From positions 1 through 40,000 of the forward strand of contig JBEKSC010000008.1 of NCBI GenBank assembly GCA_049517415.1: a stretch of 40,000 nucleotides of DNA, given 5' to 3'. A model generated the notes under the pieces. That model was given only the letters and a program-made list of their open reading frames with translations. It was not told where the DNA came from and did not search any database. The position numbers and the translations under genes were made by a program. Positions 5,823 to 28,416 of this stretch are shown one piece after another. Each line of letters begins with the position of its first letter. Position 1 is the first letter of the stretch. Origin of the DNA: Candidatus Bathyarchaeia archaeon. Its GTDB lineage: Archaea; Thermoproteota; Bathyarchaeia; 40CM-2-53-6.

Positions 5823-5865
5823 TTTTATAACACACTGAAAGTGTAATCTCAAAAATCCCTAGGTG
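5823..5865 (+). promoter_or_regulatory. Putative TATA box (TTTTATAA, 5823-5830) and SD-like AGGTG (5861-5865) upstream of aglB
   Basis: An A/T box lies about 41 nt upstream of ATG 5871. AGGTG lies 5 nt before the ATG. This is a motif-level call only. Confidence 0.3.
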
Positions 5866-5870
5866 CAGAA

Positions 5871-8645: not shown

Positions 8646-8665
8646 TAATGGTCTCTATTCCACTA

Positions 8666-8833: not shown

Positions 8834-9612
8834 CTTAGTTTGCGCCCTTCGCCGCCTAGGCTCTTAATCGAGTTTAGTGCCTCGTCAATCGCCAAGTTCA
8901 ATGTCGCTTGGGCATCCGTTATCTCTTTGCTCCTAACTTCGAGCCTGTAACGTGGGGACCCTACTGTGTAAATCTTAATGGTTGTTCCGCGTGATTTCTT
9001 AACCTTCTTCGCTCCTCGGAGTGCTTGGCGTATCGCTTCCACTCCTTCTGTCTTGGCGCAAATTAGTTCGACAGTTCCGGTGACCTTCGCTTTTTCTAAC
9101 CTAATCTTGCTCCGCGCAACTTCAGTAAGTGTCTTGGCCCATTCTTCGCTAATGCCAAGTTTGCTAAAGATCTCTTCGCCCTCATCCGTGGCTTCTTCGA
9201 ATGCGTCGAATGGGTTGTCGAATTTTTCATAGATAATCGACTTGACCTTAGATACATCATCTTCGGTCGCCTTCAACTTCTCAGCTGCTCCTTTAATGAT
9301 CGAGTCAGCTTTCTTGACTTTCTTCCATTCGAGCATTTTTTCGGATTTTTCTCGTCCCGTGACCCTGCGGAGCGAGAGGTCGACTTGAGCCCGTTGGGAG
9401 CTAACACGCAGAACCTTCAGGACGAGCTTCTGGCCCTCTCTGACGTGAACCCTGATGTTTCTCACGTATGTGCTTGCGATTTCTGAGATATGGATTAGGC
9501 CTTCCACACCTTCGTATTCATCAAGTTTGACGTATGCCCCGTAATCCACGACCCGCGTTACAGAGGCTACTACAAGGTCGCCGACCTCTGGGTAACGTGG
9601 CGTTACAGACAT
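8830..9612 (-). CDS. eif2a: Translation initiation factor aIF2 alpha subunit
   Basis: The N-terminal S1 domain reads GDLVVASVTRVVDYGAYVKLDEYEGVEGLIHISEI. Length and gene context also fit. Confidence 0.9.
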   Translation of the reverse strand: MSVTPRYPEVGDLVVASVTRVVDYGAYVKLDEYEGVEGLIHISEIASTYVRNIRVHVREGQKLVLKVLRVSSQRAQVDLSLRRVTGREKSEKMLEWKKVKKADSIIKGAAEKLKATEDDVSKVKSIIYEKFDNPFDAFEEATDEGEEIFSKLGISEEWAKTLTEVARSKIRLEKAKVTGTVELICAKTEGVEAIRQALRGAKKVKKSRGTTIKIYTVGSPRYRLEVRSKEITDAQATLNLAIDEALNSIKSLGGEGRKLS

Positions 9613-9621
9613 TTGTTTGGC

Positions 9622-9822
9622 CTATCCGAGGACTTCCACGACTTCTGACTTAATTCTTGCTTTTCCGCCGGTCGGTTCAGCTAAAATTTCTTCGCACACT
9701 GAGCATCGCGGGGAGATTGATGGTCTGTCAAATATCACTTGCTCGTTACCGCATTTGGGGCATTTGATTCTAACGAAGCTGCTCTCTGGCTTTGGAATAA
9801 GTTCGCCCTTAACCATAATCAT
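9622..9822 (-). CDS. rps27e: Ribosomal protein S27e
   Basis: FVRIKCPKCGNEQVIFDRPSISPRCSVCEEILAEPTGGKA is the S27e zinc ribbon. Confidence 0.9.
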   Translation of the reverse strand: MIMVKGELIPKPESSFVRIKCPKCGNEQVIFDRPSISPRCSVCEEILAEPTGGKARIKSEVVEVLG

Positions 9823-9903
9823 TCACTGTTCTTGTGGAATCCGAAGAAAGTGGGTGCAACCAACATAAGTGTTATGGCTTGTTTTTCTGCACTCGAAGGT
9901 AAT

Positions 9904-10179
9904 TTAGGTGATTTCGAGTTTTCGAAGTCTAATTCCGAATCGGTAGACCTCAGAGCTGCAGGTTTTGCAGCTGAGCCTCAGCAATTGTTTCTTTGTTGTC
10001 TTTGCTGTACGTTTCAGTTCCGGGAACTTCTGTCCGCCGTATCCATGCTTTCTTCGTCTTTGCCTTCTTGCTCCGTCGGACATGGCCCGTTCCTTACTCT
10101 TCTTGTAGATTGATACCTGGTGATCAGTATGTGATTTGCATTTTGGACAGTATGTTCGGATCTGTTTGGGGACTTTCAT
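9904..10179 (-). CDS. rpl44e: Ribosomal protein L44e
   Basis: TYCPKCKSHTDHQVSIYKKSK...RRKHGYGGQ...LRLSCKTC matches L44e. Confidence 0.9.
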   Translation of the reverse strand: MKVPKQIRTYCPKCKSHTDHQVSIYKKSKERAMSDGARRQRRRKHGYGGQKFPELKRTAKTTKKQLLRLSCKTCSSEVYRFGIRLRKLEIT

Positions 10180-10221
10180 ACTGATCAGCCTGAGTTCGAT
10201 ACCTAGCCTTGCGTGCGCTAT

Positions 10222-10809
10222 TTATTGTTGATGGAGTTGTTCCGCCAATTCTTCAGGCAAAGTATGATGAACACGCTTAACATCAATTTCCTTAGCGAGG
10301 CCTTGTTTAATCAGTGCCTGGGCGTTTTGATTTGGAAGGGAACCCACGTCTTCTTTCTTGTACGGGCCGTATATTTTCAAGTCAACGCCAACAATTTCGG
10401 GAACATTATCAAGGAACCTTACGACTGAAAGATCCGCTTGATCTTCGGGAAGGGAGCCTCCCTGCTTAGCTTTGTCGTGTTCCTTGTAGTTTGAGAGAGA
10501 TTCATTGAAATGTTCCACGAGCCTTTTTTCTTCATCCGTTAAGTCATTCGTGCTAATTTCGGTGCCATCTCTTGCTGCGTTAACAATTTTGTGCAGCCTT
10601 GTTTGCTTAATTTCGTCGAGCAGGCGTTTTGCTACGTCCTTCTCGTCGACGAGTAGGCGGCCCTGGATTGTACGCGTGTCGCCAGCAACGGAGTCGTCTT
10701 CCAAGCCCTTTAGGTAGCCAGTGGCACGCTGGTAAAAGTCGCTCGATAGCGGCTGCGGTTTCTCGGAGGTTTTTTCCGCCTTCCAAGCCTTGTAGAGGTC
10801 GTTGTACAC
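10222..10809 (-). CDS. GINS subunit (Gins51/Gins15-type)
   Basis: MYNDLYKAWKAEKTSEKPQPLSSDFYQRATGYLKGL...IKQTRLHKIV is a typical archaeal GINS A-domain. The gene lies 2 nt downstream of priS, matching the known gins15-priS operon. Confidence 0.7.
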   Translation of the reverse strand: MYNDLYKAWKAEKTSEKPQPLSSDFYQRATGYLKGLEDDSVAGDTRTIQGRLLVDEKDVAKRLLDEIKQTRLHKIVNAARDGTEISTNDLTDEEKRLVEHFNESLSNYKEHDKAKQGGSLPEDQADLSVVRFLDNVPEIVGVDLKIYGPYKKEDVGSLPNQNAQALIKQGLAKEIDVKRVHHTLPEELAEQLHQQ

Positions 10810-10811
10810 GT

Positions 10812-12101
10812 CTATTTCACCGGGTCTGCGACGCCCTTGGCTATTAGTAGGATTGCGACGGCTAGCGGTAGTTCAATTTTCTCGTTGGTGAACGGCCCAT
10901 AATGTTGGTCGCGCAGCATGATTTCAGGTGCTTCGCCTACTTGAACGACCTGGGCCCCTTCAAAAACTGCCGGTTCATAGAAAGGATCGAATTCTTCGAG
11001 GCGCTCTAATTCGACTGATGTGGCTTTGAGGCCTGTCTTCCCGTTCAACGTTTCCGGCATCCGGATCAGTCTGTGTATGTCCGTGGTCACGACGGTATCG
11101 ATCTGTGCAGGTAGGGCGACGAGGCTCATTGCTTTATCAACGATGTTTCTCCAGACCTTCTCGTTTATGCGCCACTTGTCTTGGAAAGAACTCCAAAGCA
11201 TCTTTCTCGACCATTCCTTCTTGATTGTTTCACGGTCCTTCAGAATCTGCGCGGCAGCGCCCCGTGTAAATCCAAGTTCAACCAGCTGCTGTTGATTCAA
11301 TTCCGTTAAGATTTGGTACACTCCGCGAGCAAGCCTACCGCGCCAACCTGGCTCCGTCAGATCAGGCCCGACGACAACCGGGTGCCGATTGTCTAGAATG
11401 TCCTGGTAAAGTCCCTGCTCAGCTGGATCCAATCCGAGGGCGAGGACATAATCTACGATCTCTTTCCGCTGCAGGTCGTCTAGAGTTTTCAGTTTGTCGG
11501 AAATTATGTGGAGGTGGTATCCTCTGTGACCGGAAAAAAACAGGTGCATCTGATTAGATTCAATTCCGAAGTCTTCTGAGAGAAACTCAATTAGTTTTAG
11601 GACTTCCTCCTTCGCAGCTATAAGACACCGAACGCAAAGCCAAGGTTTCTCATCTATTTTCTCGTTTCCGCACTTGGGACATTTTGCAGGCTTCCTTCCT
11701 CTTCGCGTCTCCTTGCAATTGGTACACGCCCACATGTCATGTGTTTCTTTGCAGGGGGTATCGATGTGATCAGCGTCAACATCGAAAACAACATCTGAGC
11801 CCTTCCAGCCTTTTTGATCCATCTCAAGAGTGGGGTGTGCATAGTACGCTGTAGAATAGTAAACATCTGAAGGCGCCAGCGATAAGAGCGAATCAGTGAA
11901 GGTTTCGAGATTCTGGAAGGCCTTGTGTCTTACCATTATCTTCTGAGGGAAAAGCAGAAACCCGAATTCGCGTTCCGTCATTGCAGAAGGGGGTTTGAGG
12001 GACGGACTTGCCGCTTTATAGTACTCTTGAAATTTCTGTTTTAGGAATTCGAAGCGTTGGGTTTGGGTGTTGGGTGGCAGGTCGCTCTTCCTCATGTTCA
12101 T
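10812..12101 (-). CDS. priS: DNA primase small (catalytic) subunit PriS
   Basis: DVVFDVDADH is the catalytic DxD motif. The Zn knuckle reads CTNCKETRRGRKPAKCPKCG, and FSGHRGYHLHI is present. Confidence 0.9.
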   Translation of the reverse strand: MNMRKSDLPPNTQTQRFEFLKQKFQEYYKAASPSLKPPSAMTEREFGFLLFPQKIMVRHKAFQNLETFTDSLLSLAPSDVYYSTAYYAHPTLEMDQKGWKGSDVVFDVDADHIDTPCKETHDMWACTNCKETRRGRKPAKCPKCGNEKIDEKPWLCVRCLIAAKEEVLKLIEFLSEDFGIESNQMHLFFSGHRGYHLHIISDKLKTLDDLQRKEIVDYVLALGLDPAEQGLYQDILDNRHPVVVGPDLTEPGWRGRLARGVYQILTELNQQQLVELGFTRGAAAQILKDRETIKKEWSRKMLWSSFQDKWRINEKVWRNIVDKAMSLVALPAQIDTVVTTDIHRLIRMPETLNGKTGLKATSVELERLEEFDPFYEPAVFEGAQVVQVGEAPEIMLRDQHYGPFTNEKIELPLAVAILLIAKGVADPVK

Positions 12102-12211
12102 GTCAGAGTAACTTCAGGCATTTCATTATTGAGTACTCGGCGCGAATACATCCTTCCATGTGCACTCACTTCATAAACCTAGCCGAATATAGTCCCAAGC
12201 GGTCTTACAGG

Positions 12212-12526
12212 ATGAGAGAAGGGTGTGTCAAAGTCGGCCAAGCGGTCGAATTTCCTGTTAGTTCTTTGAAGAAGGTTGTATTTGGCGGCGAAGATGTTCT
12301 CGTTGCAAATGTTGGCGGAAAGCTCTATGCGATACCGAACACCTGCACGCACAGAGGAGGGCCGCTTGATGAAGGTGAGCTTGAAGGAAATATCGTCATT
12401 TGCCCATGGCATGGGGGCCAGTTTGATGTTACAACGGGGAAGGTGGTTGGGCCGCCACCCACGAAAGATGAAATTCTATTTGATGTTCGCGTCGAAGGCT
12501 CCGACGTAATGTTGAAGCGAAAATAA
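12212..12526 (+). CDS. Rieske [2Fe-2S] domain protein
   Basis: CTHRGGPL...CPWHGGQF is the Rieske motif. The start is placed at ATG 12212 (MREGCVKV). The longer ORF from 12008 overlaps priS. Confidence 0.8.
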   Translation: MREGCVKVGQAVEFPVSSLKKVVFGGEDVLVANVGGKLYAIPNTCTHRGGPLDEGELEGNIVICPWHGGQFDVTTGKVVGPPPTKDEILFDVRVEGSDVMLKRK

Positions 12527-12532
12527 CCTAGG

Positions 12533-14905
12533 TTAACTCATCCATTTCCTCGCAATAATCACGAATGACACGAGAATTGCTACTAGGACCACCATGGCGA
12601 CCACAAAAGTTTCTACGGGAAAGGTCAGGGCGTAAACAGCTGTTACGTTCCCTGGCATATTCATGACAACAGGGTCTGTCGCAACTCTACCATCCTCTCC
12701 CACCCAGTAAGTCAAAGTGTATTCTCCACCTAGGTAGCCTGATGTTCCCTCAGCAGGCACGCTCTCCGGGGCGCCAACTTTCACAGTTGCATTAGCATCG
12801 TACCACCCTCCTCCCACCGTAGGTCCGAAGCGCGAGTTTACGACGAGTAGATATTGAACCGTGTAATTCAGCATCTTCAGTGAATTCGCCGATACCGCAA
12901 AACCGCCATTCTCGATTTCGTACCGGGTGCCGGGTTCACCTTGAATCTGAGTATCCAATGAAACCGTGTGCGTTTCTCCTTTGAGGAAGTATAGGTCAAC
13001 CCAGGAACCGCCCGATGGCTCGAGATTATCCTTGCCGTCTACCTGAACGGGAACGTTGATTGAGCTTGGAATACCACTGGTTACCAGTGTCAACCGGAAG
13101 AACCCGGTAGCCGTGCGTGCATCTATTTTTCCGAAGCCCCAAACCGGGGAGCCGTCCGTAGACACGCCAGTGTCTGCGTCAAGTCGTGCGGTTTGTCTGA
13201 GTATTCCCGGGATATCGATTGCTTGTAAGCGTGAGTCGTACTGGAGCATTAGGGCAATTACGCCCGCTACGTGTGGAGTTGCCATGCTTGTTCCCGATAT
13301 GATTCTGTGGAACGCGTCAGGGTCACTTTCTTGTTCGTGGATTGCATTTGATCTGGCGGATGCTATGATGGTTCCTGGTGCCACGACATCCGGCTTGATC
13401 CTTCCGTCCCTCGTGGGGCCCCAAGAGCTGAATGATGCGATTCCCCCGGGCTCTATGTCAGTAGGGCCGTAGACTTGACCATTCATTCCCGTCCATGAAG
13501 TGTTCGTTACGTAAGCGCCCACCGTCACAACATCTCTCGCCGTACCCGGTATGCCCACCGTGTCGTGGCTGTCGATCTCGTATCCGTTCCCCGGAGTGAA
13601 GGAGGGGCCAGGATAGGCGCAGGTTACCGCATCCGTCCACGCGTCCCAAGAACCTTGAGACTGAATTTGATTTCCTTTCAGAGTTACGCTCCATCCATTA
13701 GCTGGCAGGTATTTAGTCGAGTTGACTTCAAGGTACAGTTCCTTACCGTTGTTCGAGGAACTTGTTGTGGTTGTTACGTTGCCGAAATTGCTTACAACTC
13801 CTCCAGGAATTGTTGGGACATGGTAAGTCTGCCCATCTGGTATTGTGAGCGTCGCGTCGATCTGATCCTGAGGTGAATACCAGACATCGATCTGTAGGTC
13901 AACTGTTGTTTGCCGAACCTGCAGCTGGAAAGTCACGTTACTTCCCTGTGAAAGTTTGCCTTGAATGTGGGCGTTGTCTCGTGCCTCATTTCCGGCGGCA
14001 ACGACGATCGGCGTTCCCGCCTCCACGATTGCGTCGAGGCCGAGTTCGAAGGGGTCAGTTCCATCGTGGGCCCCAATGTTTCCACCTAAGCTGAGGCTTA
14101 TCACGGCACGTTTTCCCAGCTTGGCCGCTTTTTTCACAATGTAACTCACGCCATCTAAAAGGTGAGTTGTATCGAAGTTCCAGCTAGTGCCGTTGCATAA
14201 GCTATACCCGCTCTTCACGAAGATTATGCTCGCCCCCGGAGCTACCCCTGTAAAGTTTCCAGTAGCCACCCCGGAACTTGCCGCTATTCCGGCTACGTGT
14301 GTTCCGTGGCCGTACGTATCGGTTTCAGGACAGTTCTTCGCTTGAATGTCAGCTGACGTGCACTCGTAGCCGTAGTCGAAACCAATGGGTGGGCGCCCGG
14401 GAGTTGTTTGGTCCCAGACGTAGAGAATTTTGGTGGTTCCATTGGGGAAGGTGAAATCAGGGTGCGTCGTATCAATTCCAGTATCGACGAACCCAATGAT
14501 TACTCCTGCACCAGTTATATTGTTGCCATTAGGATCCTTTACTTGATTCCATACTTGCGGCGCTCCGGTATCGGGTACGCCGCTCTCAAGGTCAATGCTG
14601 AGGGAATGTGAATTCTCAATTCGGGTGACAAATGGCAAATCCGCAATCTCGGGGAGGCTGGTTACTAGGGTGTGGAGTACAGCGATGGGGCCTGCGGTCG
14701 ACGTGACTGTGCCGTATGTATTCAGCAACTGAACCTCGCTAGGGACAAAATCGTGGTCACTCTCAACGAAGATCGAGATTTGGACAGTGGGATTCTGTAA
14801 TCCACGAATAACAAGAGTAGCGTGAGCTGTTTGAGTAGGAGGTACTGAACTGGAGAGAATCGTTAAGATTGCGAGTATGCACAGAGCTACGGATCCTTTC
14901 TTCAA
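12533..14905 (-). CDS. Secreted, membrane-anchored subtilisin-like serine protease (peptidase S8)
   Basis: It has a signal peptide (MKKGSVALCILAILTILSS). The catalytic residues lie in VGFVDTGID, GHGTHVAG and SGTSMATPHVAG. The C-terminal TM anchor reads FVVAMVVLVAILVSFVIIARK. Confidence 0.9.
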   Translation of the reverse strand: MKKGSVALCILAILTILSSSVPPTQTAHATLVIRGLQNPTVQISIFVESDHDFVPSEVQLLNTYGTVTSTAGPIAVLHTLVTSLPEIADLPFVTRIENSHSLSIDLESGVPDTGAPQVWNQVKDPNGNNITGAGVIIGFVDTGIDTTHPDFTFPNGTTKILYVWDQTTPGRPPIGFDYGYECTSADIQAKNCPETDTYGHGTHVAGIAASSGVATGNFTGVAPGASIIFVKSGYSLCNGTSWNFDTTHLLDGVSYIVKKAAKLGKRAVISLSLGGNIGAHDGTDPFELGLDAIVEAGTPIVVAAGNEARDNAHIQGKLSQGSNVTFQLQVRQTTVDLQIDVWYSPQDQIDATLTIPDGQTYHVPTIPGGVVSNFGNVTTTTSSSNNGKELYLEVNSTKYLPANGWSVTLKGNQIQSQGSWDAWTDAVTCAYPGPSFTPGNGYEIDSHDTVGIPGTARDVVTVGAYVTNTSWTGMNGQVYGPTDIEPGGIASFSSWGPTRDGRIKPDVVAPGTIIASARSNAIHEQESDPDAFHRIISGTSMATPHVAGVIALMLQYDSRLQAIDIPGILRQTARLDADTGVSTDGSPVWGFGKIDARTATGFFRLTLVTSGIPSSINVPVQVDGKDNLEPSGGSWVDLYFLKGETHTVSLDTQIQGEPGTRYEIENGGFAVSANSLKMLNYTVQYLLVVNSRFGPTVGGGWYDANATVKVGAPESVPAEGTSGYLGGEYTLTYWVGEDGRVATDPVVMNMPGNVTAVYALTFPVETFVVAMVVLVAILVSFVIIARKWMS

Positions 14906-16898: not shown

Positions 16899-17222
16899 CT
16901 AGGAATTTTCACGCCAAGTTGCCCCACAACTTGTGCACCGGAAGAACTGTGTTGAGGATTCATCTGCTCCGCGCGTTTGCACAAGCCAATAGAACGCCTC
17001 TTTGTGTCCACACTTGGGGCAATCAACTTTCGTCTTCGGTAGTGTACGAATTTTCTGTTCTTCTTTACCGATGACGACCACATTCTCTTTTTGTTGCTCC
17101 AACTTTTGCACCGTGCGGTCTGACCGCTTCGTCTCGTAGCCACATTTCGGGCAACTCAAGACGACGGATTTCTGTTTCTTTGTAGGCAGAAGAGCTAAAC
17201 CGCACTTTGGACAAAACTGCAC
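16899..17222 (-). CDS. tfs: Transcription factor S (TFS/RpoM)
   Basis: The N-terminal Zn ribbon reads FCPKCG...CPKCG. The C-terminal ribbon reads CPKCGHKEAFYWLVQTRGADESSTQFFRCTSCGATWRE. Confidence 0.9.
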   Translation of the reverse strand: MQFCPKCGLALLPTKKQKSVVLSCPKCGYETKRSDRTVQKLEQQKENVVVIGKEEQKIRTLPKTKVDCPKCGHKEAFYWLVQTRGADESSTQFFRCTSCGATWRENS

Positions 17223-17642
17223 TTTGTTCGCCTTTTTGATTGGCCTTAAGGTCCTTTAGGGGCTCTAGGGGTTGTTAATTTGGGTTACTTATCCGCCCGC
17301 CCTTAGCCTAGGGTTTAGGGTTGCGAAAACTAACCAAACCGTGCTAGCTGCCTGGAGCGGGAGCATCTAAGTATTGGCGGAGTTGGGGAGGTTCAACGTG
17401 TAAACCTTTTCGTAATTGGAGACTGCAGTTGCAAAGAGGCCTTACAATACGCTGCATTATCGTAATCATGCTCTAGGTAGCATGGTCTTCTTCTTCGACT
17501 TTCACGAACACGATTGGCCAGTAAAATGCCTCGTAAAGTATGAATCCTAATTTCCGGCTCTCACGCCTGATCTTTGGTGACGCGGATGGGTACGAATCGC
17601 TACCTCCAGAAAAGCCCACTACTTTTTCCAGCAAATAACTCG

Positions 17643-17757
17643 ACTATTAGAGCCTTTCAGGTCACGGTTCAATTTGCGTTGCCCGCACCAGTAGACTCTC
17701 ACACACGTTTTTCAACGACGAACGATCATGTTCGGAATCGGTGGGTGTTATCGCTCC
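17643..17757 (+). repeat. Island repeat, copy A
   Basis: The copy contains ACGGTTCAATTTGCG, then CGCACCAGTAGACTCTCACACAC, then GTTTTTCAACGACGAACGA. It is colinear with copies B, C and D. Confidence 0.7.
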
Positions 17758-17782
17758 TTTCTTATCGCATCGTGAAGCGAAT

Positions 17783-18727
17783 CTACTTAGCACGTTTTGG
17801 CATCCAGAATAGGTAGTACATGAGGTAGAATGCCGCGATTCCGCTGAAAGGAGAGAATTTGCTTAGAAGTCGTCGAACTTCATTTGAGCCAATTCGCTTG
17901 CCTTTGAAATACGCTTGTGAGATTGCGCGTTGAATTCCTAGGTCGTCAGCAGGCAATGAATTCACCCTTCCCATGCCCCGAATCAACGTATATTCCGCAG
18001 TCCAAGGACCAACGCCCCTAATCTTGGTTAGCTCTGCAATCGCCGTCTCATCATCCATCCTCCTTAGACCTTCAAGGTCTAACTCCTTGCCTTCAACTTT
18101 CTTGGAAAGTTCACTTATGTACAATGCCTTATTCCTACTGAGCCCAACAGCCATCATTTGGTTCAGCTTTGCTTTCGCTAAAACCGCGGGAGTTGGAAAG
18201 GCATAGAAGCTTCTTCCCTCGAACTCCACACTCTCTCCATACTTCTCAATCAGGCGAGAGCGTACCGCTGCTGCAGCCTCGAGTGAAATCTGCTGCTCGG
18301 TAATGGCGATTACCAAGGCTTCAAAAATAGTCGGCGGTGAAACAGCTCTCAGCCCTCTGAGCTTCCATGAAACAATACTCATCAATCGGTCTTTCTTAAC
18401 AAACGAATAGAACTTGTCAAAATCAAACGAAGCTGCAAACATCGTATGCAGTAGTCTCTTCAATGCTTTAACTTCCTGAGCCAACAAACCTGGGTGAGCT
18501 TCCACGCTAAGACGTGGTTTTTCGATGGTTCCCTTGGATGTAACTAGGACAAGGACTGGATTCTCAGCAAGGTGAAGAACTCTTTTGTAAACACCGTTTT
18601 CATATACGTCTGGAAGGCTTTTCTCAAACCGACAGTGAATCCCCGCGCTTCTTTCAAAGTCGAATGGGGATTCGGGAAAAATGAAGAAACCTGTTTTGGA
18701 ACCAGTGATTCTGAGGGTCTTATCCAT
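17783..18727 (-). CDS. HhH-GPD superfamily DNA glycosylase (AlkA/Ogg-like)
   Basis: LTKIRGVGPWTAEYTLIRGMGRVNSLPADDLGIQRAI contains the HhH-GPD motif with the catalytic Asp. ALVIAITEQQISL is also present, and the N-terminal domain is AlkA_N-like. Confidence 0.8.
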   Translation of the reverse strand: MDKTLRITGSKTGFFIFPESPFDFERSAGIHCRFEKSLPDVYENGVYKRVLHLAENPVLVLVTSKGTIEKPRLSVEAHPGLLAQEVKALKRLLHTMFAASFDFDKFYSFVKKDRLMSIVSWKLRGLRAVSPPTIFEALVIAITEQQISLEAAAAVRSRLIEKYGESVEFEGRSFYAFPTPAVLAKAKLNQMMAVGLSRNKALYISELSKKVEGKELDLEGLRRMDDETAIAELTKIRGVGPWTAEYTLIRGMGRVNSLPADDLGIQRAISQAYFKGKRIGSNEVRRLLSKFSPFSGIAAFYLMYYLFWMPKRAK

Positions 18728-18779
18728 GAGTTGCTCGTAGCACGCTGAGAGAGTTACATGTTAAGTATTTGTGGATCTT

Positions 18780-18897
18780 GGCCACTTTAGTCGCACACAC
18801 TTCCTAGCGATTACGGTTCAAATTTGCCTGCTCGCACCAGCTGACCCACACACACTTTCTATGACGAACGACGACGGCGGCCTTTTGGGGTCTTTCC
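18780..18897 (+). repeat. Island repeat, copy B
   Basis: The copy contains GCACACACTTCCTAGCGA, TTACGGTTCAAATTTGCCTGCTC, CGCACCAGCTGACCCACACACAC and TTTCTATGACGAACGACGACGG. That is two tandem sub-units with a period of about 55 nt. Confidence 0.7.
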
Positions 18898-19872
18898 GAG
18901 GATCTTACAAAGTTCGACGAAACTGCTTATGGCCAATGGAATACCCACTCCGAGGTAAAGCGAAGAGAAGAATATAGATTGGTCACGTTGTGTAACTAAA
19001 TTCGTAATCTGAAAATCAACTAACACAAAACTACCAGAGGCGTAAAGTGGGCTCGCTCTACTAATATCCCACTGGTACCACAGATTTCCTCCAGAGGCGA
19101 AAATGTTGTCTTCAGTCGGCGATGATTCAATTATGGCACCAGCAGGTTGCGCCACGTCCAGAACGTAACTCTCGCTGTCAAATTGGTTGAGAGGAGTTAC
19201 AGGACCAGGTACTATGTTCTAGATTGCAGGGCCGTAGTCGAACCGGTTGGTCAACTCGTATGTGGAGTAGGAATTCCGCAAGAGTGGCGTTTTAATGATA
19301 ATTGTCGCATTGAACCAAAAGAAATCATAAGACGTGTTATGATTTATCATACGATTTGCGCGAACCCAGAAATATGATAAGCCTGTTGCTTTGTCGAATC
19401 CCGGAGAGTAAGTAAAGTTAGGATTAGGATATCTGCTACTCATGCTTGTACCGAAAGAGCTCATTGGAGTCAGCGTCTTTTGCATGCTGAAAGATACATC
19501 CCAATCCAGTATTGTCGCAGAAGAATTGTATGGAATCTCAGCTCCGAACACTATCTGGCTCGAGTTGAACTGCGTTTTGAAGGAGCACGATATGGAAAGA
19601 ACTGCAGCGTTGAGATCTGGCCTTATCCCGTAGACCATAACTGCAACTCTTGTTGAGGTGATTCCGTAATTCCCGGCCAGAGTTGGATAATGTGAGGCGA
19701 AAATAGCTAACCCGTAAGATGAGGATGCAGGCGCATTACTAGGGAAGTTGAAAACGTTCTGTAGGCCCGTGGATCCACAGAAAGCAAGTACGATACCACT
19801 AAAGAGAAAAATGAGCAGGAGATAAGGCACTCTCCGGTTGACGACTCTTCCGAAGCTATCTATGCTAACCAT
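18859..19872 (-). pseudogene. Surface/membrane protein gene interrupted by one in-frame TAG (19219-19221)
   Basis: ORFs 19219..19872 and 18859..19155 are in the same frame. Read-through gives ...DYGPAI*NIVPGPVTPLNQFDSESYVLDVAQPAGA... The product has an N-terminal signal anchor (LLLIFLFSGIVLAFC) and a C-terminal TM plus basic tail (KGRRRRSS). No domain was recognised. Confidence 0.5.
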
Positions 19873-20029
19873 CTAACCGAGACCCTGTTATTAGACCTGA
19901 ATAGTCCCTATAGCCACTAATGAATCGACCAGTGTCAATAACGTACGATTTAGGCTTACACGCCTACAATCATCCCCCAGCAGGAACTGCAATCGCCAAG
20001 CTAATTCAGCATGAACCGGGGGGGAATCT

Positions 20030-20130
20030 CAGCGTACACATGGAAACCCTTACGTGGACTTGTGGGTCTAGTGGTGCGCGCGCACACACTTTCCAACGAC
20101 AAACGACGACGGGTCGAATTTTGCTGCTCT
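20030..20130 (+). repeat. Island repeat, copy C (core-1 segment inverted)
   Basis: TGTGGGTCTAGTGGTGCGC is the reverse complement of core-1 in copies A, B and D. It is followed in direct orientation by GCGCACACACTTTCCAACGACAAACGACGACGGGTCGAATTTTGCTGCTC. Confidence 0.7.
20061..20087. repeat. Left inverted repeat bracketing the cas1 module
   Basis: TGTGGGTCTAGTGGTGCGCGCGCACAC matches the reverse complement of 22868-22894 at 24 of 27 positions without gaps. Confidence 0.7.
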
Positions 20131-20181
20131 TACCGAAGTTTTTTATGGATTCATTACGCACCTTTAGCTGGGTTTGATGTA

Positions 20182-20448
20182 ATGAACATGAAGTTGATGG
20201 TTCTTGTTTCTGTTGTTGCTGGTTTGGTGATTACGCTGATCACCGGGTTGGTTGATGTGACGCCTATGCACCTGGTGGGTGCAACTTGGCATGGTTGGCC
20301 GCTCCCTTGGTTCTATGTAATTGTCTACCCAGGCTCACCGATCTCGGTTAATTGGCTCAACTTAATCGGTGATATCATCGTCTGGTTTGTCATAGTCCTC
20401 GCAGTTGCCTTAGTGATTTCGAAATTCAAGAAGACGTCCAAAACTTAG
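20182..20448 (+). CDS. Small membrane protein, at least two predicted TM segments (88 aa)
   Basis: The protein reads MNMKLMVLVSVVAGLVITLITGL...WHGWPLPWFYVIV...IIVWFVIVLAVALVISKFKK. The start is placed at ATG 20182 because the upstream part of the ORF crosses repeat C. Confidence 0.5.
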   Translation: MNMKLMVLVSVVAGLVITLITGLVDVTPMHLVGATWHGWPLPWFYVIVYPGSPISVNWLNLIGDIIVWFVIVLAVALVISKFKKTSKT

Positions 20449-20549
20449 GATGCATTCGAGGTAACGATCGGAATCCGCTGAGCCCATGGCACAATTCGTC
20501 CCGAGAAGGGTGAGGCTCAGAGAGGGGGGCAGGGGATTCTGACCCCAAT

Positions 20550-20741
20550 TTAGCGGTACACATAGCCTTGCAGTGAAGCAACGGAACAATGCGAGTTCAA
20601 ATTCCGATGCTCGTACCAGAAGGCGGCCCCTCCATCTGAGGTCAGGTCGCCCACTAAAGCCACAACATCCGGTCGAATTCTATCTACCCGTTCTTCGTAT
20701 CCTTCCCATTTCACAACATCAGAGAAGGCAAGTATCTTCAT
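20550..20741 (-). CDS. Short ORF resembling the N-terminus of a metallophosphoesterase (probable remnant)
   Basis: MKILAFSDVVKWEGYEERVDRIRPDVVALVGDLTSDG resembles the MKILxxSDxH...PDxVxxxGDL motifs but lacks the His and ends after 63 aa. ATG 20741 lies 6 nt downstream of the cas1 stop codon (20750-20752). The TTG 20759 version overlaps cas1. Confidence 0.35.
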   Translation of the reverse strand: MKILAFSDVVKWEGYEERVDRIRPDVVALVGDLTSDGGAAFWYEHRNLNSHCSVASLQGYVYR

Positions 20742-20749
20742 CGAGCCCA

Positions 20750-21964
20750 CTAGGTCCAACCGCCAAGCTTCGTCATGACGGGTTTGTAGATGGTGAATTG
20801 GTCTTTACAGGCGTTCTTGCGCAAATATTGAAGGGTGCTCTTTCCAATCCCAAGGCGTCTTGCCTTGGAGCCGGTCAGTGCAAGAATCCTAGCTCGCACT
20901 TCTCGGTCATCACTCCTCTGCAGCCTCGGAGCGGGTTCTGCAAAATCAAGCGTGAGTGATTTCTCGAGTAGAAATCGGCCCAGCTCGTTGGTCTTCTGCT
21001 CAATAACAGTATCCCATTTCAGAACTCGGTGTTTGCATGCTACGCCAGCGTTGAATCGCTCACGAATGAGATCGATGAAGCGCTGCTTCGCTTCAACCTC
21101 GAAACGGTATCGGTAATCGTCCCCTGTGAAGTAGAAGTCGGATAGGTTCAAGGCTTCAGACTGGAATGCCGCGATGACCGAAATGTCAGATAGCCACCTG
21201 AACGGCTCCTGTAAATCATACACTAAAGACTGCTTTGTCTGATAGTCGCTGACATCATGAAAGAAACCGACCGAGGGTTCCAGGCCGACCGCGTTTATTG
21301 CTCGTCGACATTCACCCTCTAGGAAACCATAACCGTAGTTTAGGGCCAAGTTCACGGGATCTGAGGCGTTGTTCTGGTGGCTTGAAGTCATTCGCTCTTG
21401 GAAATCCAAGTGCTCGGGCATCACTTTCCCGAATGCTTCCCAGTATCTCCTAGCTACACGTCCTTCGACAGTTCGTAGGTCTGGCACTGTGGAGGCTCTT
21501 CTGAGCTTTGATGCCTCAAGCTTCGTTACTTGAATCTCCCTAGGAATATCATACCGCTCGGCCAACCAATCAAGAACTTGCAGACTCCTCTCAATTTTCG
21601 CTTGAACGAGCGCTCTGGCTATGCTGAACTTCTTCTTCGGATCGTTCGCAGCTAGAATTTGTGCAGCCCGCAGATCGGCCTTAACAGGCATTGGAGGCAG
21701 AACACTAGAAATCAGACTTCCATCGAAGTTCATGATGAAGACAGGAACCTTATGCTTCGACAGCCAGTGAAACGCTTGGAGAGAAATGTACCCACTGTGC
21801 CCATCGATGATGATGGTGCCGTAAGGGAAACGTCGCGGACGAAAACGGTGCGTAGATTCTGCTCTGTCATCTTCTCGCCAGTTGATGACCTCAAGTTCAG
21901 ATCTTGACTTGAGACTGTTAACGCGGATCTTGGCGCCCCAACCGGATAGATGAAGCGGATTCAA
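20750..21964 (-). CDS. cas1: Cas1 family integrase, stand-alone, casposase-like with a C-terminal HTH
   Basis: The Cas1 motifs are RTVEGRVARRYWEAF (Glu), ASDPVNLALNYGYGFL, VGFFHDV (His) and SLVYDLQEPFRW (Asp/Glu). The C-terminal HTH reads ARRLGIGKSTLQYLRKNA. Length is 404 aa. Confidence 0.85.
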   Translation of the reverse strand: MNPLHLSGWGAKIRVNSLKSRSELEVINWREDDRAESTHRFRPRRFPYGTIIIDGHSGYISLQAFHWLSKHKVPVFIMNFDGSLISSVLPPMPVKADLRAAQILAANDPKKKFSIARALVQAKIERSLQVLDWLAERYDIPREIQVTKLEASKLRRASTVPDLRTVEGRVARRYWEAFGKVMPEHLDFQERMTSSHQNNASDPVNLALNYGYGFLEGECRRAINAVGLEPSVGFFHDVSDYQTKQSLVYDLQEPFRWLSDISVIAAFQSEALNLSDFYFTGDDYRYRFEVEAKQRFIDLIRERFNAGVACKHRVLKWDTVIEQKTNELGRFLLEKSLTLDFAEPAPRLQRSDDREVRARILALTGSKARRLGIGKSTLQYLRKNACKDQFTIYKPVMTKLGGWT

Positions 21965-21966
21965 AC

Positions 21967-22413
21967 CTAATGCCCTCCCTGTCTACTTTCATATTCCTTG
22001 AGCTTCTGGTCGGCCAACTTGCCTGCTTCCTTCAATCGTTGTATCTCTCTTTCAGTAGGCCTTGATCTCGTCTTTGTGTTTGCACGGGCCACTATTGATT
22101 GCCAGCGTTCGTTGAGATATCCTACAGCGAAGCTTTCGCCTACAGGACTTGTAAGGAATTCAACGAATTTATCGGGATCGACTGCGAATGCCAACACTAT
22201 TAATCCGTAGTTGCTGAAGCAAGATTTCCAACCTTTTTTCAACTGTTCAGCATCGAGCCAGTTCCTTTTCGCTGAGAACATACTCTCAGCGAGGAAAGCC
22301 GTATACCGGGTTGAGGACCAGTGGGTCAATGCATACTTTAGGTACAGCGACCTTTCGTTAACCATTGTCAATCTAGAGTACGGTCTCATTGCAGTTGACT
22401 CAGGAGTCCTCAT
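21967..22413 (-). CDS. Hypothetical protein (148 aa) immediately upstream of cas1
   Basis: The ORF ends 2 nt before the cas1 start, which is an operon-like arrangement. I recognised no motif. It is not Cas2-like or Cas4-like. Alternative starts lie at M9 and M17. Confidence 0.5.
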   Translation of the reverse strand: MRTPESTAMRPYSRLTMVNERSLYLKYALTHWSSTRYTAFLAESMFSAKRNWLDAEQLKKGWKSCFSNYGLIVLAFAVDPDKFVEFLTSPVGESFAVGYLNERWQSIVARANTKTRSRPTEREIQRLKEAGKLADQKLKEYESRQGGH

Positions 22414-22744
22414 GCTATCACATGGCGATCCAATATCTTCGATGCTGAATAGCGCGTTCTTGCATCGAGTAATGAACTATCTCGCTGACTGGTCACCGTT
22501 CAAAACAAACAGTTATCCAAACGATGGTCTGAAACTGTACTCCGAGACAGGGAAAATGCTTAACGCCATTTTTGTGAGAGTTGCGGATGGCAAGACCTGG
22601 CACATTGCCTTTCATCTCAAGCCGGAAACGTCAACCGACGCGATCAAACCTGACATGGTCAAGCTACTCTCAATGCTAGCATCTTTAGGTTTGGTGAAGA
22701 ACCCTGTTGTGAGAGAACGAGTGGGTAAGAAACCTTGGATATGA
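22412..22744 (+). CDS. Hypothetical protein (110 aa)
   Basis: The first ATG of the ORF gives MLSHGDPISSMLNSAFLHRVMNYLADW... The composition is protein-like. The longer TTG 22211 version overlaps the 148-aa gene. No motif was recognised. Confidence 0.45.
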   Translation: MLSHGDPISSMLNSAFLHRVMNYLADWSPFKTNSYPNDGLKLYSETGKMLNAIFVRVADGKTWHIAFHLKPETSTDAIKPDMVKLLSMLASLGLVKNPVVRERVGKKPWI

Positions 22745-22844
22745 TATTAGTGATAGACAGACTGAACAAGTGTGAGAGACCGTTCTCCGAACGAGAATGA
22801 ACCATCTCCAATTTTCTCCTCGACACACAAAGCGACGCTGCCAG

Positions 22845-22950
22845 AATTAGATTCGGTCGTCCGTCTAGTGTGTGTGCGCACCATTAGACCCACACCCTTT
22901 CTAACGACGCTGGTCCAAATTACGACTCTCGCAAGCACTAGGTCCACAAT
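22845..22950 (+). repeat. Island repeat, copy D (imperfect palindrome plus direct unit)
   Basis: The sequence reads AATTAGATTCGGTCGTCCCGTCTAGTGTGTGTGCGC | GCGCACCATTAGACCCACACCCTTTCTAACGACGCTGGTCCAAATT. The left arm is an inverted partial unit. A second core-1-like GCAAGCACTAGGTCCACA lies 55 nt further on. Confidence 0.7.
22868..22894. repeat. Right inverted repeat bracketing the cas1 module
   Basis: The reverse complement is TGTGGGTCTAATGGTGCGCACACACAC. It matches 20061-20087 at 24 of 27 positions. Confidence 0.7.
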
Positions 22951-23168
22951 GAAGGAAAACGCGATAGTTGGACAGTTGAAATCACAGATAACGCAAATGG
23001 CGACTGCCAACTCTACAGGAGGCTGATTGGAATAATTTGATTGGATTGACGAAGAGTCTTACTTCTTCGCCGATTGCTTAGCGTAGGCCGCCAAACCACC
23101 ATCCGACACGCCATAATACTTAACCATTTGACTAAGCTTTTGCCATAAAGCTTTGCCAATTCAAAGCG

Positions 23169-24071
23169 GTGCAGAATTTCTTGGAAAATCTAACCTTTCA
23201 CACCTCAAAGATTGATAATTTCTCAGGCTTTTCAAAACCATTAGACGAGGCGCGCTACGTGGTGGTAGGTGTCCCATACGATCACACAAGTACATATCGA
23301 GCGGGGTCACGTTTCGCCCCACGAACAATTCGCGATGCATCATTGAACATTGAGACCTATAGCCTCCGAACGGCAATCGACATCGAAAACGTTCCAATAC
23401 ACGATGCAGGAGACCTGCATATAGTCGATAATGCTTCTGAAACACTCGACAGGCTAAAAGGGGTTACAAAGGACATTCTAGCCCTTGGGAAGATGCCAGT
23501 CATCATCGGCGGAGAGCACACAATCACTCAAGCTCCAGTCCGTAGCCTTCCGCACCCTGTCGGGGTTGTTAGTTTTGATGCCCACGGCGACCTGAGGGAT
23601 GAATATGGTGGCGGAAAATTATCCCACGCCACAGTCTTGAGGCGCATTACCGAGATTGTTGGGACGGATAGCGTTTTCGTATGCGGTCTGCGAGCCCTAT
23701 GCAAAGAAGAGGTAGATTTTATTGAACTAGGGAAAGTCCAGACGATGACGCCATGGGAAATTAGGGAGAAAGGCTTAGCCAAGGCGACGGAACGCATCAA
23801 AGCCTTTGCTCAAAAGTTCAAACACACATACCTTACCATAGATACTGATGTCTTAGACCCAGCCTTTGCACCCGGGGTCGCAAACCCTGAATTCGATGGC
23901 TTAACGCCTCAGGAACTCCTGACACTAGCCACCGCTGTGGTTGACGAAAAAATGGTCGGCTTCGACCTCGTGGAGGTATGTCCAAACTATGATACCGGCG
24001 TCACTTCCGTAGCTGCCGCCCGTCTTATCTTCGAAGTTATCGCCAAAGCAGAGAAATCGAGACAGCACTAA
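23169..24071 (+). CDS. speB: Agmatinase (arginase/ureohydrolase family)
   Basis: GGEHTIT, DAHGDLRDEY, SHATVLRR and DTDVLDPAFAPGV are the Mn-binding motifs. The start codon is GTG. Confidence 0.85.
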   Translation: MQNFLENLTFHTSKIDNFSGFSKPLDEARYVVVGVPYDHTSTYRAGSRFAPRTIRDASLNIETYSLRTAIDIENVPIHDAGDLHIVDNASETLDRLKGVTKDILALGKMPVIIGGEHTITQAPVRSLPHPVGVVSFDAHGDLRDEYGGGKLSHATVLRRITEIVGTDSVFVCGLRALCKEEVDFIELGKVQTMTPWEIREKGLAKATERIKAFAQKFKHTYLTIDTDVLDPAFAPGVANPEFDGLTPQELLTLATAVVDEKMVGFDLVEVCPNYDTGVTSVAAARLIFEVIAKAEKSRQH

Positions 24072-25806: not shown

Positions 25807-28416
25807 ATGTCGAAAACACTTGAAAGCTACTTTACGGAAAAGCGCGAGGAGATCAAACTGGCCCCGAGGCCTCTGGTCAAGCGGCAGAGCCTAGTCTTCT
25901 ATCCGGCAATGCCAGCGTCAATCCCTCCATCATACTTGGTCTCCATAGGGTATGACGGGGATCTCAAGAAATGTTTTCTGCGTCTCTACGAACCTAAGTC
26001 GCATAAAATCTATTTTTGGTTTGACGACTCGGGTCACAAACCCTACTGTTACAGCAAGCAGTCGGTCGGGGAGCTTCAGAGAGTGGAGGCGGTAGCGAGG
26101 AACCCTGGGTTCGACCATTTCGAGGAGGAAACGAAGTTTGACGCGCTTCGGAGTGAGCAAGTTAAAGTGACGAAGATCGTCGCCAAAGACCCACTGACAA
26201 TCGGTGGAAAACCTACCGGTTCAATGCGCGACGCCATAACCGCATGGGAAGCTGACATAAAGTACGTCGAGAATTTCATCTATGACCGCGGGCTCGAACC
26301 TGGCATGATGTACGAGTTTAAAGACAAACAGTTGGCCGCGGTGAAATACGAACTACCGGAAGAAGCAGCGATGGAAATTGACAGTCTCTTCCGGGATGAA
26401 TCTCAAGAGTACCAAGGCCTAGCAAGAGAATGGATGCGGCTCCTTGAGTGCCCCGTACCAGAGTACAGGAGGGCGGCCGTAGACATTGAAGTTTTTCAGG
26501 CCGTAGAGTCACGTATTCCCGATCCAGAATTATCGGAACATCCAGTAATTTGTGCAAGCCTAGTCGGATCCGATGGTGCCAAACGCGTACTCCTCTTACG
26601 ACGAGAAGGGACTCCTGAGGGTCAGGCTTCGTTACCAACTGGCGTCGAATCGGAATTCTATGACACCGAGGAAGAATTGTTAATCGCTCTATTCCAAGCT
26701 TTCCTGGATTATCCGATAGTAGTCACATTCAACGGTGACGATTTTGACCTGAAATACCTCTACCACCGCGCTCAAAGGTTGGGTTTTAGAAATGAAGAAA
26801 TTCCAATCGAGTTAGGCCGCGATGTCGCCTTTCTCAAGTATGGTGTCCATGTAGACCTCTACAAGTTCTTCTTCAACAGGTCTATCCAAATTTACGCGTT
26901 CGGCCAGAAGTACCGGGAGAACACGCTGGACGCTGTCGGCGCGGCGCTAATCGGCACTCCAAAGGTCGAAATAGAATCAGTCTCGAAAGCATCCTACAGG
27001 CAATTGGCCGCCTACTGCTATCGTGACTCCGAAATTGTCCTCAACCTGACTTCTTTCAACGAAGATTTGGTCATGAAGTTGATGACGGCGATATCACGAA
27101 TCAGCTACATGACGCTGGACGATGTCTCAAGACAGGGAGTGTCGGGTTGGATTCGAAGCATACTGTTCTGTCACCACCGCAAACGAGGATACTTGATTCC
27201 TAGGAGAGACGAGATTCTGGAGGTCAAAGGCCAAACTGCTACGGAAGCTGTGATTAAGGGCAAGAAGTACAAGGGCGCAATAGTTGTTGAACCTAAACCA
27301 GGCGTCCATTTCAACGTCGCAGTCCTCGACTTTGCATCACTGTACCCTTCTATCATCAAGGTCTGGAACCTCGGCTACGAGACAGTTCGCTGTCCACACG
27401 TGGACGAGGCTTGCAGGAAGAACCTAATCCCAGGAACGCCCCACTGGGTCTGCAAAAAGAAGCGGGGACTTGAAAGCCTGCTGATTGGTTCGCTTAGGGA
27501 CCTGCGAGTTGGCAGGTACAAGGTCAAGTCGAAAGACCGTTCCTTACCACCGAACATGAAGAGTTGGTACAAAGTCGTATCCGATGCGCTGAAGGTGGTA
27601 CTAAATGCCTCCTACGGTGTCTTCGGTGCGGATAATTTTGCGTTGTATTGTCCGCCTGTCGCCGAGGCCACTGCCGCAATAGGCAGGCACGTTATAACTC
27701 AAGCATTGCAGAAAGCGCAGGAACTTAATTTGGAAGTCTTCTACGGTGACACGGATTCCATATTTCTTCAAGGCCAGGATAAAGTCTCGCTTAACAAGCT
27801 CATCGAATGGTCTACCAGCCAGCTCAGGATGGAGTTGGAAATCGACAAGAACTATCGTTACCTTGCCCTTAGTTCAAGGAAGAAGAACTACTTCGGCGTC
27901 CTGCCCGATGGAAGCGTAGACATCAAGGGATTGACAGGGAAAAAGCGGCATATTCCAGAGTTCTTGCACGGCGCCTTTTACGAAATGGTTTCGGCCCTGG
28001 CCGAAGTCAAATCGCCGGAAGACATCGACATTGCGAAAGCGAAAACAATTGATATCGTGAAACGCAGTTACGTGAGACTGCGGAACAGGGAATACACGCT
28101 CCAGGAACTAGCCTTTTCAATGATGATGAGCAGAACCCCGGAAAATTACACAAAAACGACCCCGCAGCACGTGAAAGCGGCCAAGCAATTACAAGAAGCC
28201 GGCGCAGAAATGAAACCAGGCGATATTATATCCTTTGTCAAGGTACGGGGCGAGCCCGGAGTTAAGCCTGTGCAACTTGCTAGGCTAGAAGACGTAGACA
28301 CTGAGAAATACATCGAATATATCCGGGGCACATTCGAGCAGGTACTTGACGCTTTAGGAGTCGAATTCGAAGATTTGGCTGGCGTAAAGAAACTGGAATC
28401 CTTCTTCAATGGGTAA
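25807..28416 (+). CDS. polB: Family B DNA polymerase (cellular replicative type)
   Basis: Exonuclease motifs are AAVDIEV and FNGDDFDLKYL. Polymerase motifs are DFASLYPSII, KVVLNASYGVFG and YGDTDS. Length is 869 aa and I saw no intein. Confidence 0.9.
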   Translation: MSKTLESYFTEKREEIKLAPRPLVKRQSLVFYPAMPASIPPSYLVSIGYDGDLKKCFLRLYEPKSHKIYFWFDDSGHKPYCYSKQSVGELQRVEAVARNPGFDHFEEETKFDALRSEQVKVTKIVAKDPLTIGGKPTGSMRDAITAWEADIKYVENFIYDRGLEPGMMYEFKDKQLAAVKYELPEEAAMEIDSLFRDESQEYQGLAREWMRLLECPVPEYRRAAVDIEVFQAVESRIPDPELSEHPVICASLVGSDGAKRVLLLRREGTPEGQASLPTGVESEFYDTEEELLIALFQAFLDYPIVVTFNGDDFDLKYLYHRAQRLGFRNEEIPIELGRDVAFLKYGVHVDLYKFFFNRSIQIYAFGQKYRENTLDAVGAALIGTPKVEIESVSKASYRQLAAYCYRDSEIVLNLTSFNEDLVMKLMTAISRISYMTLDDVSRQGVSGWIRSILFCHHRKRGYLIPRRDEILEVKGQTATEAVIKGKKYKGAIVVEPKPGVHFNVAVLDFASLYPSIIKVWNLGYETVRCPHVDEACRKNLIPGTPHWVCKKKRGLESLLIGSLRDLRVGRYKVKSKDRSLPPNMKSWYKVVSDALKVVLNASYGVFGADNFALYCPPVAEATAAIGRHVITQALQKAQELNLEVFYGDTDSIFLQGQDKVSLNKLIEWSTSQLRMELEIDKNYRYLALSSRKKNYFGVLPDGSVDIKGLTGKKRHIPEFLHGAFYEMVSALAEVKSPEDIDIAKAKTIDIVKRSYVRLRNREYTLQELAFSMMMSRTPENYTKTTPQHVKAAKQLQEAGAEMKPGDIISFVKVRGEPGVKPVQLARLEDVDTEKYIEYIRGTFEQVLDALGVEFEDLAGVKKLESFFNG

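Follow-up and report, generated by a model that had tools for sequence, protein, structure and literature searches.

Casposons, the transposons whose transposase (casposase) is a Cas1-family protein, are the proposed ancestors of the adaptation machinery of clustered regularly interspaced short palindromic repeats (CRISPR). To our knowledge, few casposons have been described; these encode a family B DNA polymerase (PolB), and most are from Euryarchaeota, Thaumarchaeota and some bacteria. No published description of casposons in Bathyarchaeota/Bathyarchaeia was found in the literature that we covered, which is incomplete and leaves their absence unproven. In this study we analyzed a 40,000-nt stretch (positions 1 to 40,000 of contig JBEKSC010000008.1, assembly GCA_049517415.1) of a Candidatus Bathyarchaeia archaeon, hereafter called the window, in which an island at about 17650-22945 holds a cas1 gene and several copies of a composite repeat. 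These repeats are most probably target-plus-left-end modules of casposons, and the island would be a nest, now decayed, left by a Bathyarchaeia lineage of PolB-less, family-2-like casposons.

The closest described systems are the family 2 casposons, namely AciBoo-C1 of Aciduliprofundum boonei, MetMaz-C1 and the tandem casposons of Methanosarcina. For the casposase of A. boonei, the target overlaps a tRNA-Pro gene at its 3' end and must have the motif TCAAATC 9-15 bp upstream of the point of insertion (PMC6614799). In M. mazei the casposon duplications are 14 bp long with an invariant CGCA at the 5' end, one duplication is common to tandem elements, and solo ends adjoin CGCA (PMC4779613). The Bathyarchaeia elements studied here resemble them in a casposase that reaches the helix-turn-helix (HTH) region at the C-terminus, in a target at the 3' end of tRNA genes with a TCAAAT leader motif 9-15 bp upstream, and, among complete elements, in a 14-bp target site duplication (TSD) starting with CGCA, which is shared between tandem elements and adjoins solo ends. 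Unlike family 2, they lack PolB, reside in a Bathyarchaeia host and have many short derivatives without Cas1; their left ends often hold an internal leader, followed several times by a second 14-bp segment; and the reported accessory set (HNH and two HTH proteins) was not recognised in them by Pfam.

Composition of the repeated unit

An earlier reading of the bare sequence (the original prediction) described four copies of the repeat, A to D, each made of three blocks called core-1, core-2 and core-3. The repeated blocks are indeed present at these four sites and at no others in the window; a fifth copy, E, is partial and is located between the gene for the membrane protein and cas1. The core CGCACCANNNGACNCNCAC, with at most one mismatch, has four matches in the window versus none in 100 dinucleotide-preserving shuffles, and the pattern of leader plus 14-bp segment has three versus none.

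As read from its sequence, the unit is a family-2-type casposon integration signature, in which a target leader is followed by the 14-bp duplicated segment (the 14-mer) and then by the left end of an element. Core-3 is the leader, which resembles the 3' half of a tRNA and whose T-loop motif TCAAAT(T/C) is expected to be recognised by the casposase. In core-1, the 14-bp segment that is duplicated at insertion and starts with CGCA is joined to the opening (CA)n bases of the element, and core-2 is the stretch rich in ACGACG that lies subterminally in the left end of the element. The aligned copies read GGTTCAAAT-N5-N7-A-CCA, exactly the geometry of a tRNA 3' half. Moreover, TCAATTT, TCAAATT or CCAAATT occupies exactly positions -15 to -9 of all five direct 14-mers in the window (those of A, B, E, D' and, through the solo left end X_B, B again), four of which start with CGCA and the truncated one of E with CGTA. 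It is because the TCAAAT motif at -15 to -9, the CGCA 14-mer and the terminus behind it match the mapped family-2 casposons that we read the unit as a casposon integration site.

Two relatives with inserted elements, at the loci labelled L027 and L029, decide how the tRNA-3'-half-like stretch is to be read, and hence establish the grammar of leader, 14-bp duplication and (CA)n terminus. An initial model had taken TGTGGGTCTAnTGGTGCG, the outer part of an inverted repeat between C and D, as the end of the element; this was rejected because the elements of L027, L029 and L030 end in (CA)n/(GT)n runs, with the 14-mer lying outside as the duplication. As a separate observation, some junctions of a 14-mer with (CA)n follow a G-rich run (GGCGGCGGCGG or GGGGGGG) in place of a TCAAAT leader or a (GT)n end, at L024 (~8497), L033 (~6900 and ~15944), L013 (~17594) and L032 (~12588), and such a run may be a second kind of upstream context.

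The copies in the window are not equally complete. Full units on one strand exist only at A (17664-17725) and B (18813-18876), both on the plus strand, with 71% identity across 62 nt and nhmmer E-values of 5e-12 and 5e-16, respectively. At C, core-1 lies on the minus strand (20060-20078) while the ACGACG-rich core-2 and a TTCAAAT-like core-3 lie on the plus strand, which corrects the claim that all four copies face the plus strand. D is partial: behind a (GT)n right end (22868-22876) come a 14-mer and a solo left end, and then another 14-mer, which is degenerate. Each site does hold roughly 1.5-2 tandem sub-units, in agreement with the two or so that had been described. C and D form an inverted repeat of 27 nt at 89% identity (20061-20087 / 22868-22894), for which a gapped extension was also found. 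Among the 14-mers, T_A and T_D are the closest direct pair, with 12/14 positions in common; the one at C matches T_D at 13/14, yet in inverted orientation. In total, the island has at least four left-end junctions in one direction and one right end; its termini comprise three left ends with (CA)n, a degenerate left end at D' and a single right end with (GT)n.

Cas1, complete relatives and distribution of the unit

The Cas1 protein of the window matches Pfam Cas_Cas1 (E 1e-51) and is identical to a database protein labelled Candidatus Bathyarchaeia Cas1. Its best solved relative is the casposase of M. mazei, 6OPM (E 4e-69), versus E 1e-21 or worse for CRISPR Cas1 proteins. The alignment with 6OPM covers residues 36-403 of 404, up to residue 414 of 431 in the 6OPM chain, with the C-terminal part included, and the C-terminal HTH extension of family-2 casposases is accordingly predicted to be present. 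The catalytic residues E167, H236, D250 and E253 are kept: they are invariant across an alignment of 27 clade members and line up with the VEG / H / YDLQEPFR motifs of 6OPM. The window Cas1 may still be active. No other integrase-family domain was found in the island proteins. The earlier view that cas1 is the relevant integrase here is supported.

A PolB gene does lie at 25807-28416 (+), 3 kb from cas1, and was considered as a casposon polymerase. This was rejected and the gene assigned to the host, because the order speB-rsmB-PolB-F420 ligase is syntenic in three relatives without Cas1 nearby. Pfam detected no PolB in the complete relatives L027, L029 and L030, and no open reading frame (ORF) of at least 650 aa, the size of PolB, occurs in any element of the Bathyarchaeia clade. 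As a positive control, the Methanolobus and Methanosarcina loci have a PolB of ~890 aa, 2 kb upstream of cas1. PolB is thus absent from the Bathyarchaeia elements examined.

Complete elements were sought as pairs of (CA)n and (GT)n termini with matching flanking 14-mers, and the search yielded ten paired elements, eight of them with 14/14 duplications. Five of the eight carry Cas1 (L021, L025, L027, L030 and L203; 8.7-11.5 kb) and three have no Cas1 match (L154, 1,610 bp; L173, 2,082 bp; L189, 4,103 bp). All ten have (CA)n/(GT)n termini, and all ten have an upstream flank that reads GGTTCAA(A/T)T, 8 nt, 14-mer. The element of L027 (8156-17169), 9,014 bp long, follows a real tRNA-Pro gene; its perfect 65-nt terminal inverted repeats start with CACACACACACA, and its TSD is the perfect 14-bp direct repeat CCCACCACGATTTC, covering the last bases of the tRNA-Pro. 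The same layout exists at a real tRNA-Lys in L029 (7933-16270), with a 13/14 TSD, and the element of L030 spans 3337-12742. With regard to cargo, defence-like genes were seen in these three elements: an OLD-like TOPRIM plus HEPN in L027, Schlafen/AlbA_2 in L029 and DUF4365 in L030.

Copies of the leader also occur inside the elements. They were found in 15 of 41 left ends and in three of the ten complete elements, and in several left ends (e.g. those of L025, L030 and L092) the inner leader is followed by a second 14-mer. L025 and L030 contain such mimics of leader plus 14-mer and both have perfect outer duplications. Furthermore, in several relatives the right TSD is directly followed by an older left end, which implies that a new element enters beside the leader. 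Of 16 compared loci, eight share two small proteins and four a protein of 230-300 aa; the window has none of them, so that its cas1 module is a reduced one, with cas1 itself intact but stripped of the accessory genes of complete relatives. In a single genome, the Bathyarchaeota metagenome-assembled genome (MAG) MFD03726.bin.2.69, at least seven Cas1 loci were observed (L014/L011, L015/L012, L017/L013, L026, L031, L035 and L037), with three full-length Cas1 proteins of this clade, three truncated ones (start residues 105, 148 and 197) and one distant at 39% identity; these multiple full and truncated copies point to proliferation and decay within one genome.

The Cas1 homologues detected exceed 950. 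A profile built from the copies was searched by nhmmer in the loci recovered by a Cas1 scan. The unit is present in 28 loci whose Cas1 is 42-80% identical, each but one carrying the label Bathyarchaeia/Bathyarchaeota, and absent from about 50 Methanosarcinales, Thermoplasmata and DPANN-type loci of the same scan (Cas1 30-39% identity). Strict junctions of a 14-mer with CACAC number 41 in 552 kb of Bathyarchaeia loci versus one in 823 kb of other archaeal casposon loci. The units are therefore confined to the lineage with this Cas1 clade.

A second scan, blind to Cas1, searched metagenome contigs for the pattern leader+14-mer+CAC and returned at least 120 loci. The matches listed (120 loci), to which the following counts refer, contain 337 units in 654 kb. 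Cas1 is present in 13 of these loci, and in six of the 23 that are 10 kb or longer. Left ends number ~127 and right ends ~101 after discounting the 120 junctions used for selection, a rough balance. Neighbouring leader-bearing units are in the same orientation in 62 cases versus 23 in which they are not (p = 3e-5), at a median spacing of 1.27 kb. Units far outnumber Cas1 genes, as is expected of non-autonomous derivatives and footprints. In the relatives, tandem copies are mostly 40-75 nt apart (median ~56), and non-tandem units are spaced by 0.2-6 kb with genes within. The original prediction would have been contradicted by units scattered with no tie to the island or to cas1; this is partly the case, most of the listed loci being without the gene, but the link of the units to this Cas1 lineage is not broken. 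A viral origin of the units was also considered and was rejected on a single pattern match in 2.9 million viral contigs, versus at least 120 in metagenome contigs.

Arrays also occur far from any Cas1. In L092 (18088-18908) and L093, an insertion of ~820 bp beside a cyclophilin-like gene has three units in tandem (left end + 14-mer) at its start and lacks a right end; the syntenic site in the window (~31950) is empty of it, and L094 differs there, ending in GTGTGTGT. Tandem Repeats Finder reported nothing on the L092 array.

Both modules and strains vary at the island. The DNA of segment 20103-20621 agrees at about 92% with a module of L025, versus only 63% identity for the Cas1 proteins of the same two loci, from which it follows that the mobility or recombination of modules is independent of Cas1. 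Up to 20480, contigs from several samples are 97-100% identical to the window; beyond that point they differ from one another: in L095-L098, ParA (ParA/CbiA), a 5TM-LYT protein and a 986-aa gene follow in the place of cas1 and speB, L100 and L102 stop at the fork, and L099 and L101 cross the junction of the window. Eight Cas1-side contigs all end at 20340, that is, 20480 minus the assembly k-mer (k=141), the pattern expected at an assembly fork. A, B and C are retained in the ParA-type variant, from which E and D are missing; both forms occur in peat or soil samples. Cassette gain or loss between strains had been put forward for comparison; what the natural populations display is structural polymorphism of the island but not a clean gain or loss, the strain breakpoint lying inside the membrane module and not at a unit border. 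An empty site was sought in related genomes through speB homologues, and none was recovered; there the right flank (speB-rsmB-PolB) is syntenic and the left flank differs.

A nested-insertion model and its competitors

The grammar of the unit and the perfect duplications of the relatives support the earlier suggestion that, as in tandem casposons, insertions occurred in series at a reiterated target. Under the model that we propose, casposon-type elements, some with Cas1 and most non-autonomous, would have inserted repeatedly beside leaders, and an inserted element could offer a fresh target where the subterminal region of its own left end has a leader-like copy, as in about a third of left ends. 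The result would be 1.5-2 tandem units per junction and rows of short gene-bearing segments in the same orientation. Later deletions, a small inversion at C and exchange of modules may then have taken away most right ends, until a single one was left, at D. We infer both the order of insertion and the use of internal target mimics, and a unique insertion order for the window could not be reconstructed.

Several findings weigh against this nested-casposon reading. PolB, a defining casposon gene, does not occur between the repeats of the island, and casposase activity in the Bathyarchaeia clade is a prediction. The window has no clean TSD pair, T_A/T_D agreeing at 12/14, and the 14-mers flanking the C/D inverted repeat are mutually inverted, which a single insertion cannot produce. 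The segments A-B and B-C, at best putative separate elements, have no recognisable right ends, and the idea of each as an intact casposon of its own finds no support. The shared membrane module has its breakpoints within units, not at casposase cleavage positions. Finally, the internal leader mimic is found in only about a third of left ends, and 107 of the 120 listed unit loci have no Cas1 on the contig.

Of the competing explanations, the one that survives best is that the units are recombination sites of an active gene-cassette platform, where Cas1 inserts and excises single-gene cassettes in the manner of an integron and the array is kept by selection. The same-orientation arrays at single-gene spacing fit it, as do the position of units mostly 3' of cas1 (~41 downstream versus 15 upstream in Cas1 loci with full flanks), the cassette with 92% identity across two elements whose Cas1 proteins reach only 63%, and the defence-like cargo of complete relatives. 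We nevertheless hold it unlikely, in that the cassette-like segments lack the (GT)n right terminus which a casposase would need, the breakpoints of the shared cassette fall within units and not at their borders, one window cassette is pseudogene-like with its in-frame TAG, most arrays have no Cas1 nearby, and ordinary decay of nested transposons gives the same picture. Integron arrays share with the island the same-orientation repeats that part mostly single-gene segments beside an integrase-like gene. In contrast to integrons, there is no IntI tyrosine recombinase, attC hairpin or attI/Pc, and the boundaries are transposon ends with target duplications; the comparison with integron-like cassettes made in the original prediction therefore stays a likeness and does not extend to membership.

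Quite unlikely, too, is a single simple casposon at 20061-22894 bounded by the C/D inverted repeat, with A and B as unrelated leftovers. This repeat, which extends with gaps, does enclose cas1. However, in the ten relatives with matched TSDs the termini are (CA)n/(GT)n runs, which lie inside the C/D arms; the outer part of each arm is the 14-mer itself, oriented oppositely in the two arms; no direct duplication surrounds 20061-22894; and 20103-20621 is a separately conserved module that ends in a leader and 14-mer of its own.

A much less probable view takes the units as attachment-site copies (repeats of tRNA 3' halves) of tyrosine-recombinase elements or as scars of homologous recombination, with Cas1 as a passenger. 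Arrays of integrated elements at tRNA genes are common, and the leader with the first 7 nt of the 14-mer has the exact geometry of a tRNA 3' half (T-loop, 5-nt stem, 7-nt acceptor, discriminator, CCA). Against this stand the lack of an integrase-family domain besides Cas1 in the island proteins, the conservation that extends beyond CCA into a fixed 7 nt and then (CA)n, and the inverted (CA)n/(GT)n termini with exact 14-bp duplications, which are features of a transposase. A reading of the unit as a structured small RNA or as a family of tRNA-like genes, of the kind against which covariation had been suggested as a check, is hardly credible despite the unit's resemblance to a tRNA 3' end, with no pairs (energy 0) from RNAalifold on 20 copies, nothing relevant in Rfam at E <= 1, and no tRNA found by ARAGORN in the window, which holds only tRNA-like remnants.

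The nested-casposon reading places the island beside other described systems as well. Like Tn7-type attachment-site islands, an analogy already drawn for casposons (PMC4779613), site-specific transposons and their decayed copies gather at one site, and like the families of miniature inverted-repeat transposable elements, short non-autonomous derivatives carry the same ends and the same TSD; unlike both, the transposase is of a different family and the target is a tRNA-like leader. With CRISPR arrays and Cas1-Cas2 the shared features are a Cas1-family integrase, a leader-dependent insertion site and a short segment duplicated at each insertion. They differ in that no Cas2 or other cas domain was found among the scanned island proteins, the duplicated segment is 14 bp, the inserts are kilobase-sized with their own termini, there are no unique short spacers, and the tandem 57-nt units are mutually homologous throughout.

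A bolder extension, which we put forward only tentatively and regard as doubtful, is a PolB-less casposon that carries a pseudo-tRNA leader, often with a 14-mer, in its left end, so that each insertion would recreate the integration site. Leader-proximal or nested insertions, mostly of non-autonomous cargo copies, would then build same-orientation arrays of single-gene cassettes that Cas1 mobilises in trans, giving a gene-capture platform that stands between casposons and CRISPR arrays. Should the internal target mimic prove functional, it would offer a concrete model for the passage from a Cas1 transposon to a leader-directed, array-building system. Apart from this, the numbers of Cas1 homologues and unit loci indicate an abundant casposon lineage in Bathyarchaeia, which keeps the family-2 target rules without the polymerase and has many short Cas1-less derivatives and leader-adjacent arrays in the same orientation. 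For annotation, the reading would account for a class of small variable islands in Bathyarchaeia MAGs.

Gene content of the island

The features are listed in Table 1. The position of the island between tfs and the arginase-family gene speB, and the gene list, agree with the original prediction; its three modules do not, as copy E divides the cas1 module into two.

Table 1. Features of the island and its flanks, in window coordinates
Feature	Coordinates	Strand	Remarks
tfs, TFIIS-type	16899-17222		Left flank
Partial left-end remnant ending in leader A	17652-17683	+	TCAATTT at 17669-17675, i.e. -15 to -9 of the 14-mer; nhmmer unit 17664-17725
14-mer T_A, CGCACCAGTAGACT, TSD-type	17684-17697	+	Starts CGCA like the M. 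mazei TSDs; 12/14 to T_D
Left end L_A: CTCACACAC, then GTTTTTCAACGACGAACGA (core-2), then leader-like stretch TTCGGAATC	17698-17757	+
HhH-GPD glycosylase gene, body between A and B	17783-18727	-	Pfam PF00730, E 4.6e-16
Degenerate 14-mer (18780-18793), then solo left end X_B	18780-18832	+	X_B: (CA)n 18794-18800, core-2-like stretch, leader with TCAAATT 18818-18824
14-mer T_B, CGCACCAGCTGACC	18833-18846	+
Left end L_B: CACACACAC TTTCTATGACGAACGACGACGG	18847-18877	+
Secreted/surface-type ORF holding a single in-frame TAG; body of the B-C segment	18859-19872	-	3' end enters L_B
Junction C: TTGTG, inverted 14-mer 20065-20078 (reverse complement CGCACCACTAGACC), CGCG	20060-20082	-	Left arm of the 27-nt inverted repeat with D
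Left end L_C: CACACAC TTTCCAACGACAAACGACGACGG GTCGAATTTTGCTGCTC	20083-20129	+
Membrane-protein module; gene 20182-20448	20103-20621	+	DNA identity ~92% to module within L025 casposon
Copy E: leader (TCAAATT 20597-20603) + truncated 14-mer 20612-20619, CGTACCAG	20595-20619	+
cas1 module	20550-22744		66-aa ORF 20550-20750 (-); cas1 20750-21964 (-); 140-aa ORF 21967-22389 (-); 110-aa ORF 22412-22744 (+)
Sole right end of the island: subterminal ...TCGGTCGTCCGTCTA, then (GT)n terminus 22868-22876	22845-22876	+
14-mer T_D, CGCACCATTAGACC	22877-22890	+
Solo left end X_D' (CACACCC TTTCTAACGACGC TGGTCCAAATTACGACTCT), then degenerate 14-mer CGCAAGCACTAGGTCC	22891-22945	+	Leader of X_D': CCAAATT at -15 to -9 of the degenerate 14-mer (22930-22945)
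speB, arginase family	23259-24071		Right flank

The small ORFs of the cas1 module have no Pfam match, and six island proteins have no match in PHROGs. Two short ORFs, 22747-23010 (-) and 17473-17634 (-), overlap the unit-bearing intergenic stretches at D and left of A, respectively, and are probably spurious. The TAG-interrupted ORF comprises 338 codons, with an N-terminal hydrophobic segment and the single TAG at codon 218, and could be a pseudogene or a case of TAG read-through; its final codons (RRRRSS) come from the ACGACG-rich left end at B.

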